From the UHGV virus genome UHGV-0107525: 11,430 nucleotides of DNA; one strand, written 5' to 3'. The DNA is from a virus. Shown here in pieces: positions 1,530 to 7,268 of this stretch; position 1 is the first letter of the stretch; every line of letters begins with the position of its first letter. A program made the translations under genes and the position numbers. The notes under the pieces were generated by a model. That model made no database searches and was not told the DNA's origin. It saw only the letters and a program-made list of their open reading frames with translations.

Positions 1530-1922
1530 ATGGAACAAATCAGCAGCGCAGAAATTGCGGATATCATGATCAGGGCTGACTGCTATCTGACAGTCACTGA
1601 AATTACCACTCTAGCTAAAGAAAAATATCCTCACCTTCATGTTTCACGCGTAAGTGTAACCAACATCATTCGGCATTTTGTGCGGTCAAGCCGAGCTATT
1701 TGTGAGCTTGATGATCGTGTTTACCCACGGAAATACTGGTTGCATGGCCTGAACGGATATCAGTTCAAGGTGCGCGGGCGCACCCCTGAATACGGCAGTT
1801 TGCTGGTTAAAAACTGTAGCCGGAAGTCTGCAGAACTGGCGCGACAAGAGCAGCGCAAGCTGGTGGACATGGCTAATAAGCTGTGGAATGCCGCAGTTAA
1901 AAAGCGTGGTGTTGCTTTATGA
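1530..1922 (+). CDS. Putative small DNA-binding protein (winged-helix-like), immediately upstream of and overlapping pacA
   Basis: ATG at 1530 with GGGGGA 4 nt upstream; stop overlaps the pacA ATG (ATGA at 1919-1922). Helix-turn-helix-like segment LTVTEITTLAKEKYPHLHVSRVSVTNIIRHF followed by a wing-like YPRKYWLHGLNGY. P1 has its late-promoter activator lpa in this position, but homology could not be verified. Confidence 0.5.
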   Translation: MEQISSAEIADIMIRADCYLTVTEITTLAKEKYPHLHVSRVSVTNIIRHFVRSSRAICELDDRVYPRKYWLHGLNGYQFKVRGRTPEYGSLLVKNCSRKSAELARQEQRKLVDMANKLWNAAVKKRGVAL

Positions 1923-3283
1923 GCCTTGTTAATTGGGAAGAGCACCGCGCCAAATTTATAGCGTTGCGTGAAGAAAAAGGGATCACCGTAAAGGAATACT
2001 GCGAGCAACACGACCTTAGCTTCAATACCGCCAGAAAGCATCTCAATATGAAAAAAAATGAGGTGCGGTCGCAGGTGAAGACTACAAAAAAAAGCACCAA
2101 ATCACCTGAAAAAAAACGGGCAGGAAGAGCAAAAAAAAGGCCAGAAGAGGGTACAGAAACAACAAAATTTACAGAAACTGACAATTCACAGAGCGGAAGT
2201 TCTTTCCGGAGCATGCCGAGAAAGAAAACTTCGGATCATAAAAATAACGACAATAATAACAATGAGATAAAAGAATCTGTCAGGAGATCATTGCGCGAAA
2301 AAATGGCGAAAATGATCCCCACCGAAGATAAATGCGCCTCAAAAATCGAGGGATCTTCAGCAATGATCCCTGGCGGTGCTGTGCAGCGTGCCACGTTGCC
2401 CACTACGAGTGTGGCTCGCGACATGATGAAGAACGGCGCAGAAGAGCACCTGCGGTTAGCAATTCAAATGGCGCAAGAACGCGCACTTCAGTACCAAAGC
2501 ATTGTTGATCAGGAGGCCGAACGCCTACAGGCGGAGATAGACGCCCTGGGTGATGAACAGCCAGAAGGAATGCACCCTGGGCAGCGACTTCTCGGTCTAA
2601 TCAGTGACGCGGCCTACTACATGAACGATTTTATCAGTAGGTTGGCAGCGATATATCAGTCCGAACAAAAGCTGCGACAGGGTGATGAAAAACTTCGTCA
2701 GGGTGCTCGCCAGCAAGCATTCAGAGAGGCCGAGGCCAGAGAAAAACTCGAATTAGCACGCCTACAGGCCGAACAGCGTGGCAAAGAGATTGAATATCGC
2801 ATTGGCGCTGACGCACGCGCAGCCAGAGTTATCGCCGCCGCTATACGTATGCGTGAGCGCGAGGAGCTGGACGATATCGGTGTTGCTGAATACATCGAGC
2901 GTCAGGGTGTCAGTGTCCCGGCTATCCTCGCGGCGCGCGCGGCGAAAGCTATCACTCTTCTCGAACCTCCAGTTTCTGACATCAATGATGTTGATGATGA
3001 ACAGCTGGACAAAGAAGCGAAGGAGTTTGCATCGCTTCAGGCTAACCATCCGCAATGGCTGGCAGAGCGCCGGGCGGATGTGGCAACCATTGTTGAAGAT
3101 CTGGGGTGCGGAGATTACGACCACAATGGCGAGCGTAAGGCTGGGGAATTCGAGGCCAACGACGAAGAGTTGGATATTGACCCTTCGGCTACGGATGAAA
3201 TTTACGGTGATTATGATGCATCAGACGCAGGATATGACGCCGGAGATGATGATATCGCGATAGAACCGCCGGAGGACGACTAA
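1919..3283 (+). CDS. pacA: Terminase small / pac-recognition subunit PacA-like
   Basis: 454-aa protein with N-terminal HTH-like region, lysine-rich linker, coiled-coil-like Ala/Arg/Glu-rich middle and strongly acidic C-terminus (DDDIAIEPPEDD). Stop overlaps the start of the large terminase gene (TAATG). Contains an internal GATC cluster, as P1 pacA contains pac. Confidence 0.8.
   Translation: MSLVNWEEHRAKFIALREEKGITVKEYCEQHDLSFNTARKHLNMKKNEVRSQVKTTKKSTKSPEKKRAGRAKKRPEEGTETTKFTETDNSQSGSSFRSMPRKKTSDHKNNDNNNNEIKESVRRSLREKMAKMIPTEDKCASKIEGSSAMIPGGAVQRATLPTTSVARDMMKNGAEEHLRLAIQMAQERALQYQSIVDQEAERLQAEIDALGDEQPEGMHPGQRLLGLISDAAYYMNDFISRLAAIYQSEQKLRQGDEKLRQGARQQAFREAEAREKLELARLQAEQRGKEIEYRIGADARAARVIAAAIRMREREELDDIGVAEYIERQGVSVPAILAARAAKAITLLEPPVSDINDVDDEQLDKEAKEFASLQANHPQWLAERRADVATIVEDLGCGDYDHNGERKAGEFEANDEELDIDPSATDEIYGDYDASDAGYDAGDDDIAIEPPEDD
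2233..2369. other. Candidate pac (packaging initiation) site: cluster of five Dam GATC hexamers inside pacA
   Basis: GATC at 2234, 2286, 2314, 2352 and 2365 within about 136 bp, in hexamers GGATCA, AGATCA, TGATCC, GGATCT, TGATCC; ATGATCCC occurs twice. P1 pac is a methylation-regulated cluster of TGATCA/G hexamers within pacA. Confidence 0.4.
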
Positions 3284-4791
3284 TGGCTGGTGGGCGCAAG
3301 ATTAAATGCGTCACCAGCGATCCACGCTGGCGCGATATGGTAATCAAATACCGCTACAACTTTACCCAGGCTGTTGTTGATATTTTCGGGATGTTTCCCT
3401 CCCACCAGCAGCAGGAGATTATCCAGTCCGTACAGCAAAAAGGGAGCAGAACCACTGTTACTTCTGGTCACGGTACAGGGAAATCGTCGTTAACAGCTAT
3501 GTTGTTGCTGATTTATTTGATTCTGTTCCCCGATGCCCGTGTCATCATTGTTGCTAACAAGATAGGCCAGGTTAAAACAGGGGTATTCAAATACGTTAAA
3601 CAGTATTGGGCGAATGCAGTTAAGCGTCACGGGTGGTTACAGACCTATTTTGTCCTGTCTGACACCATGTTTTATGAACGTTCCCGCAAAGGGATCTGGG
3701 AAGTTCTCTGCAAAGGTTATCGACTCGGTAACGAAGAAGCACTGGCGGGGGAGCACGCGGCACATTTGCTTCTAATTCTGGATGAAGCATCAGGCATATC
3801 TGATAAAGCGATCGGCGTAATGACTGGCGCTCTGACTGAAGAAGATAACCGAATGTTGATGCTATCCCAGCCAACAAGGCCAAGTGGTTATTTCTACGAT
3901 TCGCACCATTCTCAAGCTAAAACCCCAGACAACCCGAAAGGGATCTGGACAGCAATTGTTCTTAACTCAGAAGAATCACCGTTCGTCACACCACAATTCA
4001 TCAGGCAGAAACTCCTGGAATATGGCGGGCGCGATTCTATTGAGTACATGGTCAAGGTTCTTGGTCAGTTTCCTCGGGAGATTAACGGCTATTTGCTTGG
4101 TCGTGATGAATGCGATCGCGCTGCGCGGCGCAAGGTGTTGTTGGAGAAAAACTGGGGATGGGTGGCTACTGCTGACGTTGGTAACGGGCGAGACAAGTCA
4201 GTTCTTAATATCTGTAAAGTGTCTGGTCACCGGGAAAAGCGGCGTGTTGTTAACTTTAAGGTAATGGAAATGCCAGGGACTATGGACCCGCTGGCTTTTG
4301 CTGACTTTATATACAACGAATGCACACCGGATAAATACCCGAATATTACAATCGCGGTTGACGCAGACGGTTTTGGTTCAGATACCTGTGCGCAGCTGGT
4401 GCGCCGTGGGGCTAATCCGGTACGGATTCGGTGGGGGAAACCCATGTTTTCGAACAAAGACAAGGAGCGTTTTGTTAACCAGCGTGCCTACGCAAATATT
4501 ATGGCTCGTGATGCCATAAAGTCAGGTCGTATGCGAATAGACAGCGACCCTAAAACGGCAGAGCAAGCGTCAAAAATCCCCTTTTTACTTAATGAAGAAG
4601 GGAAGATGGCGATGATGCGCAAGGAGCACATGCGGCAAAAGCTGAACATCAAATCACCTGACCGATGGGATACCTACTGCTTTACAATGCTGGTGGACTA
4701 TGTTCCTGCTAATGAAGATATCGGCGCTGAAATGGCTACCTTCCGCGATCAGGTTCTTGCAGATGTGGAAATGCCAGATCTGGATATATAA
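3283..4791 (+). CDS. pacB: Terminase large subunit PacB-like (ATPase plus nuclease)
   Basis: 502 aa. Walker A-like TSGHGTGKSS, Walker B-like LLLILDEASG, and C-terminal acidic clusters typical of the RNase H-like terminase nuclease domain (VATADVGNGRD, IAVDADGFGSD). Immediately follows pacA. Confidence 0.9.
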   Translation: MAGGRKIKCVTSDPRWRDMVIKYRYNFTQAVVDIFGMFPSHQQQEIIQSVQQKGSRTTVTSGHGTGKSSLTAMLLLIYLILFPDARVIIVANKIGQVKTGVFKYVKQYWANAVKRHGWLQTYFVLSDTMFYERSRKGIWEVLCKGYRLGNEEALAGEHAAHLLLILDEASGISDKAIGVMTGALTEEDNRMLMLSQPTRPSGYFYDSHHSQAKTPDNPKGIWTAIVLNSEESPFVTPQFIRQKLLEYGGRDSIEYMVKVLGQFPREINGYLLGRDECDRAARRKVLLEKNWGWVATADVGNGRDKSVLNICKVSGHREKRRVVNFKVMEMPGTMDPLAFADFIYNECTPDKYPNITIAVDADGFGSDTCAQLVRRGANPVRIRWGKPMFSNKDKERFVNQRAYANIMARDAIKSGRMRIDSDPKTAEQASKIPFLLNEEGKMAMMRKEHMRQKLNIKSPDRWDTYCFTMLVDYVPANEDIGAEMATFRDQVLADVEMPDLDI

Positions 4792-4816: not shown

Positions 4817-5854
4817 TTACCAGAGTTTAGCGGCGTGCTGTGTTTGGGAGAAAGTGAACCCGTAACGTTCTTCTATGGTTTTACCGTATCTTTTCCGCGC
4901 GTCTGTCAGTTTTATGCCTGTCAGGTCATCTCCGGATGTCATCATTACGTCTAACAACTCCAGATCCATTTTATTCAGTCGCGCCATCGCTTCGCGTGCT
5001 GTCTGTATTTTACGCTCAATGATATGGCGAATAGCCGGATCGGCTTCCTCAAGCATTTTGGCTGATTTGTTCTTTAAGCTCTCATTGCGGATGTCGATGT
5101 TTCGCAAGATGTATGACTTCGCAACATAGCTTGGTTGGTGTTTCTCCAGATCGCGAACGCGATAGAGACTAAAGTCACCAAGCAGGCCGCAAGGTATCGA
5201 CTCAACCCCAGAATAAATAGTAATGCTGCGACGTTCGCCGACATTATTAACAACGGGCACTGTGGTGTTCGGAAGTTTTGCGAACACTAAGGCTCCGTGT
5301 GCGCCTACCCTGAATCGTGACAGAGCATTGCTGCCTTCAATGTTTGTTGTAAGCACTACATCTGTGTATCCATCTTTGCGCGCCCGGTAAACTTCCCCTT
5401 CAGGTTCTGATGCGAAAAAACGGCGCTCTTCTTCAAGTGCACCAACAATCTGCGAAAATATCTTGTTTTTCAGGCTTTTCTTTATAATTGCATCATATTT
5501 TTTGAGCAGATTTTCGCGCGTAAATGAGCGGGTGGTGGTCGCGCTTTGCACAACAATATGCGTGCTTTGATTTGTGTCCTCGATAATGAATGGGATCGGA
5601 GAATATACAGACTCAACAATGTTAGACGCTTTGCCGTCAGCGTTACGGCACAAGTCAACAAAGGCTTTCCATTCTGTGAGGCACTTTTCAGCTTCTTCTA
5701 GCACATTCTGATCATGTGTTAGTGCAACATGGCGGAATTCCTCGCCGGAATAACTGGTATCATGGAAAACAGAGTTTGCGACCACCAGCTCTTTCCACCG
5801 TTCAGCGGTTTGCAGGAACCGTTTGTACTCTTTCTCGATCGACTTCTTACTCAT
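4817..5854 (-). CDS. Hypothetical 345-aa protein in the position of the P1 c1 immunity repressor (possible C1-type repressor)
   Basis: Long - strand ORF convergent with pacB, AGGA-type RBS 4-5 nt upstream of the ATG (RC of 5852-5854). Placement between pacB and the lox-type site/recombinase matches P1 c1. The functional call is by synteny only; no recognisable HTH. Confidence 0.4.
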   Translation of the reverse strand: MSKKSIEKEYKRFLQTAERWKELVVANSVFHDTSYSGEEFRHVALTHDQNVLEEAEKCLTEWKAFVDLCRNADGKASNIVESVYSPIPFIIEDTNQSTHIVVQSATTTRSFTRENLLKKYDAIIKKSLKNKIFSQIVGALEEERRFFASEPEGEVYRARKDGYTDVVLTTNIEGSNALSRFRVGAHGALVFAKLPNTTVPVVNNVGERRSITIYSGVESIPCGLLGDFSLYRVRDLEKHQPSYVAKSYILRNIDIRNESLKNKSAKMLEEADPAIRHIIERKIQTAREAMARLNKMDLELLDVMMTSGDDLTGIKLTDARKRYGKTIEERYGFTFSQTQHAAKLW

Positions 5855-6047: not shown

Positions 6048-6059
6048 TAAATTTCTAAC
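6048..6059. repeat. Copy of 12-bp motif TAAATTTCTAAC abutting the rox-like site
   Basis: Identical 12-mer also at 7272-7283; 9-bp core shared with 5873-5881. Confidence 0.3.
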
Positions 6060-6087
6060 TTTAGATAATTGGCATTATTTAAAGTTA
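6056..6087. other. rox-type recombination site (Dre target; lox analogue)
   Basis: TAACTTTAGATAAT-TGGC-ATTATTTAAAGTTA: 14-bp inverted arms around a 4-bp spacer. The reverse complement matches the rox site as I recall it (TAACTTTAAATAATGCCAATTATTTAAAGTTA) at 31 of 32 positions, with one arm mismatch. Lies 152 bp upstream of the Cre-family recombinase gene. Confidence 0.85.
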
Positions 6088-6096
6088 GTATATAAT
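6069..6096 (+). promoter_or_regulatory. Sigma70-like promoter overlapping the rox spacer and right arm, directed toward the recombinase gene
   Basis: -35 TTGGCA (6069-6074), 16-bp spacer, -10 TATAAT (6091-6096). Two GATC sites follow at 6100-6103 and 6109-6112. A second -35-like TTGACA at 6116-6121 has only a weak -10. Confidence 0.45.
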
Positions 6097-6239
6097 AATG
6101 ATCAAACGATCAGTATTGACAGACTCAAAAAGTCATGGTTCGAATCAAGGGCTTAAATTTTAAATTCTCACGGATAACTAGCCTGTCATTTTTTGTTTTT
6201 TCGCGTAGCGACACCAATTTATAGAGGTGAAATGATTAC

Positions 6240-7268
6240 ATGAGTAAACTTATTATCTCCGGTAATCCTGGCATGTTTCTTCGTGATATTGGTGCTGAGT
6301 ACCAGGAAGCCGCCAAAAATTTCATGCAGTTCCTTAATGACCAGGGCGCTTACTCACCTAATACACTGCGCGATCTGCGCTTGGTCTTTCACTCCTGGGC
6401 GCGTTGGTGCCACGCTCGTGGTATTGCGTGGTTTCCGATCTCCCCGGAAGCTGCCCGCGAATACCTGCTTCAACTGCATGATGCGGATCTGGCTTCAACC
6501 ACCATTGAAAAGCATTACGCCATGCTCAATATGCTGTTGTCACAATGCGGACTGCCGCAACTCTCTGATGACAAAAGCGTATCCCTGGCGATGCGGCGCA
6601 TCCGGCGCGAAGCTGCAACCGAAAAAGGCGAACGCACAGGCCAGGCTATACCGTTGCGGTGGGATGATCTGAAATGGCTCGACGTGTTGCTGTCCCGTTC
6701 CGAGCGGCTGGTGGACCTGCGCAACCGGGCGTTTCTCTTCGTGGCATACAATACCCTGTTGCGTATGGCTGAAATGTCCCGCGTGCGTGTTCGCGATCTG
6801 GAACAGACTGGTGACACTGTAACGCTTCACGTATCCCACACCAAAACCATCACGACCGCCGCCGGACTTGATAAGGTGCTCTCCCTCCGGACAACTGCGG
6901 TTCTCAATGACTGGCTGGACGAGTCCGGACTACGTGATCACCCGGATGCGATACTTTTCCCGCCAGTACACCGGAGCAACAAAGCGCGGATCACCACCAC
7001 GCCACTAACCGCGCCCGCGATGGAGAAGATTTTCAGTGACGCCTGGGCGCTGCTTGGTAAGAGTGATGCCACCCCAAATAAAGGCCGTTACCGGACGTGG
7101 ACAGGCCACAGTGCGCGTGTTGGTGCCGCCATAGATATGGCTGAAAAACAGGTGTCTTTGGTTGAAATTATGCAGGAAGGTACATGGAAGAAGCCCGAAA
7201 CACTGATGCGTTATCTTCGTCGTGGCGGTGTGACAGCAGGTGCCAATAGCCGCCTCATGGATTCATGA
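6240..7268 (+). CDS. dre: Cre-family tyrosine recombinase, Dre-like
   Basis: 342 aa. Aligns along its length to P1 Cre as recalled, with conserved blocks (FPISPE, AFLFVAYNTLLRMAE vs Cre AFLGIAYNTLLRIAE, WTGHSARVGAA vs WSGHSARVGAA) and catalytic Arg, His-x-x-Arg, Trp and Tyr (LMRYLRR) in place. GAGGTG RBS 10 nt upstream. Adjacent rox-type site supports Dre. Confidence 0.92.
   Translation: MSKLIISGNPGMFLRDIGAEYQEAAKNFMQFLNDQGAYSPNTLRDLRLVFHSWARWCHARGIAWFPISPEAAREYLLQLHDADLASTTIEKHYAMLNMLLSQCGLPQLSDDKSVSLAMRRIRREAATEKGERTGQAIPLRWDDLKWLDVLLSRSERLVDLRNRAFLFVAYNTLLRMAEMSRVRVRDLEQTGDTVTLHVSHTKTITTAAGLDKVLSLRTTAVLNDWLDESGLRDHPDAILFPPVHRSNKARITTTPLTAPAMEKIFSDAWALLGKSDATPNKGRYRTWTGHSARVGAAIDMAEKQVSLVEIMQEGTWKKPETLMRYLRRGGVTAGANSRLMDS

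Follow-up and report, generated by a model that had tools for sequence, protein, structure and literature searches.

The packaging site (pac) of phage P1 was reportedly described by Sternberg and Coulby in 1987-1990 and by Skorupski et al. in 1994. The P1 record NC_005856 annotates pac together with an IHF site and cut sites. The P1 site occupies 161 bp within pacA and contains seven TGATCA/G repeats; its cleavage is under methylation control, and synonymous recoding of the repeats cuts packaging about 9-fold (PMC10028697). Analysis of read starts in the manner of PhageTerm has been validated on P1 (PMC5557969).

Phages of the P22, Sf6 and SPP1 type also carry pac in the small-terminase gene and fill headfuls from a preferred start (PMC11260489). 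The candidate site described here resembles theirs in lying inside the small-terminase gene, whose own product is predicted to read it. The pac sites of these phages are not known to consist of Dam sites or to be gated by methylation, and no sequence relationship is known between their terminase proteins and PacA. Clusters of GATC are also found at E. coli oriC and in the P1 oriR heptamer repeats, where they are read by SeqA and Dam. These origin clusters are dense and conserved, like the cluster considered here, and the methylation state of the origin acts as a switch. Unlike them, the present cluster lies away from a replication gene or origin (D6 has its plasmid replication gene near 46 kb and repL near 21 kb) and has conserved clade-specific flanks.

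The D6-like terminase locus

The stretch of DNA analysed, referred to as the window, is 11,430 nucleotides of the viral genome UHGV-0107525. It is 91.5% identical to phage D6 over 3.5 kb and 99% identical to E. coli phage-plasmids of about 90 kb; near-identity and synteny with Escherichia phage D6 place it in the D6 group of phage-plasmids. Members of this group occur widely in E. coli, Shigella and Salmonella, clinical lineages included. A pac site is annotated in neither D6 record, and none of the papers examined mentions one. The gene order is lpa-pacA-pacB-c1-rox-dre, as in P1, and includes the following features.

1919-3283, plus strand: pacA, an open reading frame of 1365 nt (454 aa) for the small/recognition subunit of a P1-type pacase
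3283-4791, plus strand: pacB, 502 aa, the large terminase/nuclease-ATPase subunit
6056-6087, plus strand: rox-like recombination site (lox equivalent), with one mismatch to the D6 rox arms

The assignment of pacA in the initial annotation is borne out by the protein comparisons. PacA is 93% identical to D6 PacA and collinear with P1 PacA at 19% identity (pairwise BLASTP, E=7e-9). It matches the terminase profile phrog_1711 (E=2e-176), and its N-terminal part also matches small-terminase phrogs. A tblastn search of PacA against phage records retrieved D6 only and did not retrieve P1, so that the homology to P1 PacA shows only in the pairwise comparison. PacB is 56% identical to P1 PacB over 488 aa and matches Terminase_6N and phrog_2, the terminase large subunit. 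Based on its conservation profile, PacA has an N-terminal helix-turn-helix-like domain (aa 1-45, with the helix NTARKHLN), then a K/N-rich, poorly conserved linker (aa ~46-150), followed by a C-terminal part that is conserved.

No match to the rox-like site was found in 200 shuffles. It is followed by a dre-like recombinase gene (6240-7268), the product of which has an integrase domain by Pfam; both rox and dre are annotated in D6. Phage D6 also encodes a D12-class N6-adenine methylase, D6_63 (PF02086, E=2e-56).

GATC repeats within pacA

Five GATC sites lie in 135-136 bp of pacA, as the initial annotation had noted, at 2234, 2286, 2314, 2352 and 2365 (contexts, in order: cGGATCAT, gAGATCAT, aATGATCCC, gGGATCTT and aATGATCCC). 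The largest gap between them is 52 bp, and some pairs of sites are 13 and 28 bp apart. The cluster covers nt 316-450 of the 1365-nt gene, the end of its first third, in agreement with the N-terminal third named earlier. The rest of pacA and pacB contains 10 GATC in 2737 bp, or about 1 per 270 bp, for which the previous figure of one per 200 bp was roughly right. The sequence already recognised as repeated, ATGATCCC, is exact at 2312-2319 and 2363-2370 and belongs to a longer repeat, the 9-mer AATGATCCC, which is exact at 2311-2319 and 2362-2370. In the 91-kb D6 genome the only two exact copies of the 9-mer are those in the cluster (repeats C and E below). Oriented to this consensus, the cluster has three minus-strand and two plus-strand repeats. 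The repeats and two neighbouring elements are as follows.

2166-2185, plus strand: conserved island AATTTACAGAAACTGACAAT, about 50 bp upstream of repeat A
2232-2240, minus strand: repeat A, CGGATCATA on the plus strand and TATGATCCG on the minus strand, matching AATGATCCC at 7/9 positions
2257-2269, plus strand: IHF-like sequence TAACAATGAGATA, within the spacer that separates repeats A and B, which is AT-rich (30% GC)
2284-2292, minus strand: repeat B, GAGATCATT on the plus strand and AATGATCTC on the minus strand, matching AATGATCCC at 8/9 positions
2311-2319, plus strand: repeat C, AATGATCCC, the exact 9-mer
2350-2358, minus strand: repeat D, GGGATCTTC on the plus strand and GAAGATCCC on the minus strand, with GATC at 2352-2355
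2362-2370, plus strand: repeat E, AATGATCCC, the exact 9-mer, with GATC at 2365-2368

Repeat A (GATC 2234-2237, codons GAT CAT for Asp-His) is present in all 25 distinct D6-group pacA sequences, and its GGATCA is invariant in 7 divergent lineages. Repeat B (GATC 2286-2289, codons xGA TCA TTx for Arg/Gly-Ser-Leu/Phe) has an invariant GATCATT and matches the consensus at 9/9 positions in lineages L004-L006; it pairs as an inverted repeat with repeat C (I6) and with repeat E (I7). Repeat C (GATC 2314-2317, codons ATG ATC CCx for Met-Ile-Pro) is found in 24/25 of the D6-group sequences, and repeat E is identical in 25/25. Repeat D has an invariant GATC core and matches at 7/9 positions in the window and in D6, and it is a perfect GGGATCATT in L004. 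Jointly, repeats D and E form the palindrome GATCATYGCAAATGATC in L004-L007.

The IHF-like sequence TAACAATGAGATA has two mismatches to the IHF consensus WATCAANNNNTTR, a quality of match that occurs 9 times per kb in the window. It is a weak candidate for an IHF site and is identical at 10/13 positions to the annotated IHF site of P1 pac, AAACAAAGAGTTA. It occurs at the same position in 7/7 D6-group representatives, and a match with two mismatches is common by chance. A 46-bp length difference in some plasmids (H12 and others) was set aside; judged by gene spacing, it apparently lies between pacB and c1, outside the cluster.

The cluster shares several features with P1 pac. Both lie within pacA of a PacA/PacB operon, in the DNA for the linker that follows the N-terminal helix-turn-helix (aa 65-118 for P1 pac, aa 105-150 for the cluster), with genes for homologous PacA and PacB at and beside the site. 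Both consist of several short repeats that each contain the Dam site GATC, with five invariant cores in the present case, and both include a segment that is AT-rich or resembles an IHF site, in the window weakly so. A recombination site, lox in P1 and rox in the window, is found about 4 kb downstream (3.7 kb from the GATC cluster in the window), and the P1 and D6 phages each carry their own adenine methylase.

There are also differences from P1. The initial annotation had described hexamers of the P1 type, TGATCA/G, but neither TGATCA nor TGATCG occurs anywhere in the cluster; the repeat word is asymmetric, with a TGATCC core (GGATCA on the other strand) within AATGATCCC, and unlike in P1 its copies are in both orientations, as inverted pairs. 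Where P1 has 4+3 copies around a spacer of ~90 bp that holds the cut sites, the window has five copies in one 136-bp cluster. Alignment with the P1 pac region, which the initial annotation proposed as a check, places the cluster in matching linker-coding DNA; the two-arm layout of P1 is absent. The window PacA, at 19% identity to that of P1, also has a different putative recognition helix. We regard the cluster as a relative of P1 pac with a different repeat word and layout.

Conservation in D6-like lineages and across PacA clades

The density of GATC is marginal evidence. The probability that five sites fall this close together somewhere in the window is 0.08 with uniform placement and 0.04 with dinucleotide shuffles, and in the whole 91-kb D6 genome the cluster is the densest 4- and 5-site GATC group, yet with p=0.29. 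CGCG, CCGG, AATT and GCGC form 5-site clusters in the window that are as tight or tighter. We therefore rejected density as proof of function; it is conservation that convincingly carries the case beyond chance.

Conservation was assessed in seven divergent D6-group lineages, whose DNA is about 61% identical in this region. All 20 GATC-core columns are invariant, versus 156/370 (42%) in the DNA around them (hypergeometric p=1.5e-8). Among the invariant runs within pacA nt 151-520, the longest are AAATGATCCC, AATGATCCC, AATTTACA, GATCATT and GGATCA, the first of which, at repeat C, is the longest of this variable stretch. In comparison with L036 (55-63% local identity), 5/5 of the cluster GATC sites are kept, versus 1/7 of the other GATC sites in contexts of <70% identity (Fisher p about 0.008, hand-calculated). 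In each of two natural variants, a change of GATC to GACC has removed one site, so single sites are dispensable. The five sites are under DNA-level purifying selection. Since they stay fixed while the surrounding DNA mutates freely, they are most likely a signal for the start of packaging.

The feature extends to the whole PacA family. We assembled a panel of clades from an IMG/VR scan with PacB alignment; a PacB scan of a separate genome-contig collection yielded only 2 loci. An excess of GATC in pacA nt 140-480 is present in 20/20 examined PacA clades, P1 included, and is 4.8-fold overall. In the family protein alignment, the cluster and the experimentally mapped P1 pac fall in the same stretch of linker-coding pacA DNA. 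The GATC core is common to all clades and its flanks are clade-specific: TGATCC in D6 and Enterobacter, and TGATCA, TGATCG or CGATCA in the others. The flanks vary together with the putative recognition helix, which is NTARKHLN in some clades and NTARRELx or NTARRYLR in others, a correlation that represents a single evolutionary event. Contig ends were rejected as a proxy for physical ends, as the IMG/VR pattern scan gave mostly chance matches; one IMG/VR contig begins at window position 2238, which we record as an anecdote.

A left GATC arm is present in P1, in the Enterobacter sister clade and in all other clades, and is absent from the D6 group. Because it is missing there, the D6 cluster may make up no more than a portion of the site, or be what remains of it. 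The sister clade (pJBIWA008_2, L008; IMG/VR L038) has a candidate pac with the same 9-mer, AATGATCCC/GGGATCATT, the same helix NTARKHLN and the same central island as the window. The right arm of L008 aligns with the window cluster and is mostly plus-oriented. Unlike the D6 group, L008 has a left arm, with GATC at nt 157, 169 and 181 in 12-bp steps and minus orientation; the arms are about 200 bp apart, in a P1-like two-arm layout that is absent in the D6 group. Four A8 runs were tried as a left arm in the D6 group and rejected, as they are not kept in lineages L004-L006.

Within the island at 2166-2185, AATTTACA and TGACAA are invariant in the D6 group and kept in L008, in which the island sits midway between the two GATC arms. 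We speculate that it is possibly part of pac, as a centre or a bend. At its end, ACTGACAA (2178-2185) is the reverse complement of TTGTCAGT, found at the P1 cut sites. We rejected this as a common cut-site motif: ACTGACAA is absent from all other clades, the P7-like one included, and we treat the match as coincidental.

A candidate pac element and its alternatives

With moderate confidence, and on the basis of the sequence comparisons, we predict that the repeats at 2232-2370 form the pac recognition element of the D6-like phage-plasmid, in full or at least as far as its right-hand arm. By analogy with P1, the element is probably read in methylated form. This analogy is strengthened because the GATC core is invariant family-wide despite changing flanks and because phage D6 has a D12-class adenine methylase.

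We infer protein binding, methylation dependence, cut position and packaging direction from the P1 model and gene order. The pac repeats would be written into the DNA for the loosely constrained PacA linker. Late in infection, the PacA/PacB pacase would bind them through the PacA N-terminal helix-turn-helix, and for binding or cutting, host Dam or the phage D12-class methylase would need to have methylated the GATC cores at N6 of adenine. A DNA bend may form at the AT-rich spacer, possibly with the help of IHF, and PacB would cut nearby to begin headful packaging. Packaging would probably proceed rightward through pacB, c1 and rox, in which case the first headful would carry rox in the terminal redundancy. 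The initial annotation took the cluster to fix a candidate start and direction of packaging. The sequence fixes neither a cut position nor a direction, and the conserved pacA-pacB-c1-rox order does no more than suggest the latter.

The cluster could instead be a Dam/SeqA-responsive cis element that is not recognized by the terminase, with the true pac elsewhere; it may then couple pacA/pacB expression or another late function to the state of replication or methylation. We consider this rather unlikely. GATC clusters are generally known to serve sequestration and regulation as well (oriC, P1 oriR), the site pairs 13 and 28 bp apart could suit SeqA, and conservation shows a function but not which one. 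On the other hand, no promoter or terminator signal above shuffle expectation was found in or around the cluster, it occupies a place homologous to that of the mapped P1 pac, and across 20 clades the feature follows the terminase genes. Past GATC, the flanks are kept as a 9-mer that is particular to the PacA clade, and this argues for a sequence-specific reader and not SeqA or Dam alone.

It also seems quite unlikely that the cluster is a remnant right arm, now auxiliary, with recognition or cutting moved to other conserved pacA DNA such as 2033-2064 or 2166-2185. The first of these locations is a 32-nt invariant block just upstream in which all 9 of 9 synonymous sites are frozen; nothing ties this block to packaging. 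The second is the island, conserved and central between the arms in L008, and other clades do not share the resemblance of its ACTGACAA to the P1 cut site. The left arm of the sister clade (nt 157-181) is indeed missing from the D6 group, and the window copies of repeats A and D are degenerate, but the five sites are strictly kept in all sublineages, unlike what is expected of a decaying remnant.

A constraint on PacA peptides (Asp-His, Ser-Leu, Met-Ile-Pro), with GATC incidental, is very unlikely to explain the conservation. Met-Ile-Pro is encoded twice in one frame, the repeats mostly encode Asp-His in the Pantoea and Serratia clades, and in a low-power test only 4/6 of the synonymous repeat positions that could be tested are frozen, versus a background of 32%. 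Against this, the word of 7-9 nt is kept in three codon registers (GAT CAT, xGA TCA TTx and ATG ATC CCx) and on both strands, where it encodes unrelated peptides; the same word in different frames and on both strands places the constraint on the DNA and not on the protein. The nucleotides of the word stay fixed while adjacent residues change (Arg/Gly, Leu/Phe, Ala/Gln), all four bases occur at the Pro wobble position just past the repeat, and the surrounding linker protein is otherwise unconstrained. The equivalent repeats of P1 are proven DNA signals (PMC10028697).

A chance grouping of a common tetramer with no function, for which the scan statistics (window p=0.04-0.08, D6 genome p=0.29) and the equally tight clusters of other palindromic tetramers might speak, has a negligible probability and is effectively refuted by the conservation data, with five sites invariant among lineages about 61% identical (p=1.5e-8), retention of 5/5 versus 1/7 comparable sites and family-wide recurrence.

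Within the reading of the repeats as a pac element, we tentatively suggest, as a possibility drawn from the sequence comparisons, that D6-like phages have a re-specified, one-armed pac, in which a PacA whose recognition helix has changed to NTARKHLN would read inverted pairs of the asymmetric methylated AATGATCCC in a single compact cluster, with no need for the second arm on which P1 depends.

A pac element at this position introduces no new principle, because its logic is that of P1 pac. The candidate predicts the starting point of virion DNA ends and of generalized-transduction gradients. A fragment of about 2160-2375 may provide a basis for D6 phagemids, which could be orthogonal to P1 phagemids. 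The 20 PacA clades, with a common GATC core and differing flanks and arm layouts, form a comparison set for how small terminases read methylated DNA. If the re-specified one-armed pac is true, D6 and P1 packaging would be orthogonal, and related phage-plasmids sharing a cell would therefore not package each other. The methylated GATC core would then be the constant part of the signal, and the flanking bases an evolvable address, across the terminase family.

The GATC cluster and its gene setting

Nucleotide identity over the 3.5 kb around the cluster is 91.5% to Escherichia phage D6 and reaches 99.4% to E. coli plasmids of ~90 kb. The genes and sites are ordered as follows:

First in the order, before lpa: Tad2-like gene
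1530-1922: lpa
1919-3283: pacA
3283-4791: pacB
4817-5854, minus strand: c1
6056-6087: rox-like site
6240-7268: dre-type recombinase

PacB is 56% identical to P1 PacB. PacA aligns collinearly with P1 PacA (E=7e-9) at only 19% identity. PacA matches phrog_1711, a phage terminase family (E=2e-176), and small-terminase families at its N-terminus; we found no Pfam family and no relative with a solved structure for it.

At the C-terminus of the ORF at 454-1029 lies a Tad2-like (Thoeris anti-defence 2) domain (PF11195, E=3e-9), a match in conflict with the plasmid records, where homologues of this ORF are annotated as "MW1434 family type I TA system toxin". Plasmid matches H12-H14, H20 and H21 (e.g. 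CP057742, L015) are near-identical and ~46 bp longer across the query, with the extra sequence apparently between pacB and c1, judging from gene spacing (72 bp vs 26 bp in the window). Matches H15-H17 have a transposase insertion within the same 3.5 kb. The rox-like site TAACTTTAGATAATTGGCATTATTTAAAGTTA (6056-6111 region) has one arm mismatch to D6 rox and is followed by two GATC 8 bp apart (6100, 6108), upstream of the dre gene; only 6108 is retained in the pacA lineage L036. The cre promoters of P1 are reported as Dam-regulated.

Within pacA, GATC occurs at 2234, 2286, 2314, 2352 and 2365, and ATGATCCC is present at 2312-2319 and 2363-2370, confirming the five-site cluster and repeated word of the initial annotation. 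The five repeats, A to E, have AATGATCCC as their common word; two further conserved pieces are listed with them:

2311-2319, plus strand: repeat C, AATGATCCC
2362-2370, plus strand: repeat E, AATGATCCC
Minus strand: repeats A, B and D, copies of the AATGATCCC word
2166-2185: conserved island AATTTACAGAAACTGACAAT, shared by the D6 group and Enterobacter lineage L008, midway between the L008 arms
2257-2269: IHF-like TAACAATGAGATA, in the spacer that separates repeats A and B (30% GC)

Comparison with P1 pac and the PacA family

The pacA panel, from plasmid records and 80 IMG/VR loci anchored on PacB, comprises 84 distinct sequences, of which the D6 group contributes 25. The P1 record (NC_005856) places pac within pacA and annotates an IHF site and four primary cut positions; these lie between two sets of repeats, four TGATCA at pacA nt 195-229 and three TGATCA/G at nt 325-348. 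All 20 PacA clades examined have a GATC excess at pacA nt 140-480 (136 in 6.8 kb vs 191 in 45.8 kb, 4.8-fold; per-clade Poisson p from 0.11 to 2e-6), and a protein alignment places every clade's sites within an unconserved linker behind the N-terminal domain. Most clades have a two-arm layout, often with 12-bp phasing; Pantoea has GATC at nt 154, 166, 178, 190, 202 and 214, then at 363 and 379.

Every clade has the GATC core, whereas the flanks are clade-specific. Most clades have T on either side (TGATCA) and some have T/C; T/G (TGATCC) is restricted to the D6 group and its Enterobacter sister clade (L008/L038). The putative recognition helix is NTARKHLN in these two groups and NTARRELx or NTARRYLR elsewhere, a pattern that fits co-evolution of reader and site, although it stems from a single evolutionary event. 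A distant PacA clade, L078 (IMG/VR 3300027985_000978), has 14 linker GATC at nt 187-520. Of these, 13 are flanked by C and by T on opposite sides (typically CGATCA), which makes this the family's second asymmetric type of repeat.

We consider it fairly probable that D6-like phages use the cluster as their pac recognition element, in a version of P1 pac in which the repeat word differs and the repeats form one cluster. The initial reading as a P1-like pac is supported in part: the place in pacA is of the P1 type and the GATC is conserved, but the word has a TGATCC core in AATGATCCC instead of TGATCA/G, and a single cluster replaces the 4+3 repeats around the P1 cut positions. Both D6 records lack a pac annotation, and the literature searched, a set outside which stands the D6 genome paper that may describe one, does not mention a D6 pac site.

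A Dam/SeqA regulatory element is a possible alternative, but it is without promoter support and leaves the clade-specific 9-mer unexplained. The cluster could also be a remnant arm, with recognition shifted elsewhere. The Enterobacter clade has a left arm at nt 157, 169 and 181 (GGGATCATT) and, in mirror orientation, a right arm at nt 380-471, mostly AATGATCCC. The D6 group has the right-hand cluster only; its DNA at the expected left-arm place encodes an unconserved lysine-rich stretch. The missing arm favors a remnant, as does a striking invariant 32-nt block (2033-2064), but the five sites are still strictly kept.

This block, AGAAAGCATCTCAATATGAAAAAAAATGAGGT, does not vary among the 25 distinct D6-group pacA sequences and is the longest invariant run of pacA, twice the next longest. 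All nine testable synonymous sites are frozen (32% background), and its ARKHLN peptide uses other codons in the Enterobacter clade. An in-frame ATG, GAGGT and an A8 run all lie within it, and it could serve as an internal start or a slippery site, or belong to pac. Four A8 runs within 90 nt (2051-2058, 2086-2093, 2109-2116 and 2131-2138) encode a Lys-rich linker and are found only in the window/D6 sublineage, not being conserved in L004-L006. Slippage or sequencing error at A8 runs could explain several pacA entries in the databases that are split, frameshifted or shortened (L007, L009, L015 annotation).

The island at 2166-2185 might be part of the pac site, as might the IHF-like element, both weak candidates. 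ACTGACAA in the island is the reverse complement of TTGTCAGT, which spans the P1 pac cut sites; this 8-mer is absent from all other clades examined.

Constraint on the repeats

The repeats are read as GAT CAT (A), xGA TCA TTx (B, D) and ATG ATC CCx (C, E). Because one word persists across three registers and both strands, the pattern points to DNA-binding specificity rather than a peptide motif. A peptide constraint on PacA is poorly supported for the same reason, and adjacent residues vary (Arg/Gly, Leu/Phe, Ala/Gln) while the word nucleotides are fixed. All four bases occur at the Pro wobble position directly past repeat C, and 4/6 synonymous sites in the repeats are frozen against a 32% background, in an underpowered test. 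Lineage L004 has four perfect copies of AATGATCCC, two per orientation; a repeat finder independently detected the inverted pairs B/C and B/E. The D6 genome has only two exact 9-mer copies, repeats C and E.

Between D6 sublineages, pacA nt 151-520 are only ~61% identical. Across seven representatives, 20/20 GATC-core columns are invariant, compared with 156/370 for the whole stretch (hypergeometric p=1.5e-8), and the longest invariant runs are AAATGATCCC, AATGATCCC, AATTTACA, GATCATT and GGATCA. L036, 78% identical overall, retains 5/5 cluster sites at 55-63% local identity and 1/7 of the other GATC in <70%-identity contexts. Chance clustering is poorly supported given this invariance and retention. 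Two natural variants each miss one site through GATC to GACC.

GATC density taken alone is weak support for function. The remainder of pacA and pacB has 10 GATC in 2737 bp; uniform placement yields an equally tight five-site cluster anywhere in the window with a frequency of 8%, dinucleotide shuffling with a frequency of 4%, and CGCG, CCGG, AATT and GCGC form clusters as tight or tighter. In the complete D6 genome (91,159 bp), the pacA cluster is the densest of four or five GATC sites (131 bp vs 327 bp for the runner-up outside pacA), with a genome-wide chance of 0.29.

Methylation, cutting and packaging direction

P1 pacase binds hemimethylated pac and additional methylation promotes cleavage; synonymous recoding of the P1 pac repeats reduces packaging ~9-fold (PMC10028697). 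The family-wide unchanging part of the repeat is exactly the Dam target, and the phage D6 genome encodes, beyond the reach of the 11-kb window, a D12-class N6-adenine methylase (D6_63; PF02086, E=2e-56). By analogy with P1, methylation may have a role at the D6-group cluster, for which this support is indirect.

The IMG/VR contig of L062 (2537562191_000021; 23.6 kb, isolate genome) starts at window position 2238, the base directly after the repeat A GATC; this could be an assembly coincidence or the trace of a physical end.

The cluster had been proposed to fix a candidate packaging start and direction; the sequence settles neither the cut position nor the direction. P1 packaging proceeds toward lox, so the first headful has lox in its redundancy. 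Here rox lies 3.7 kb downstream of the cluster, mirroring the placement of lox ~4 kb downstream of pac. Because the order pacA-pacB-c1-rox mirrors that of P1, packaging in D6-like phages would be expected to run rightward.
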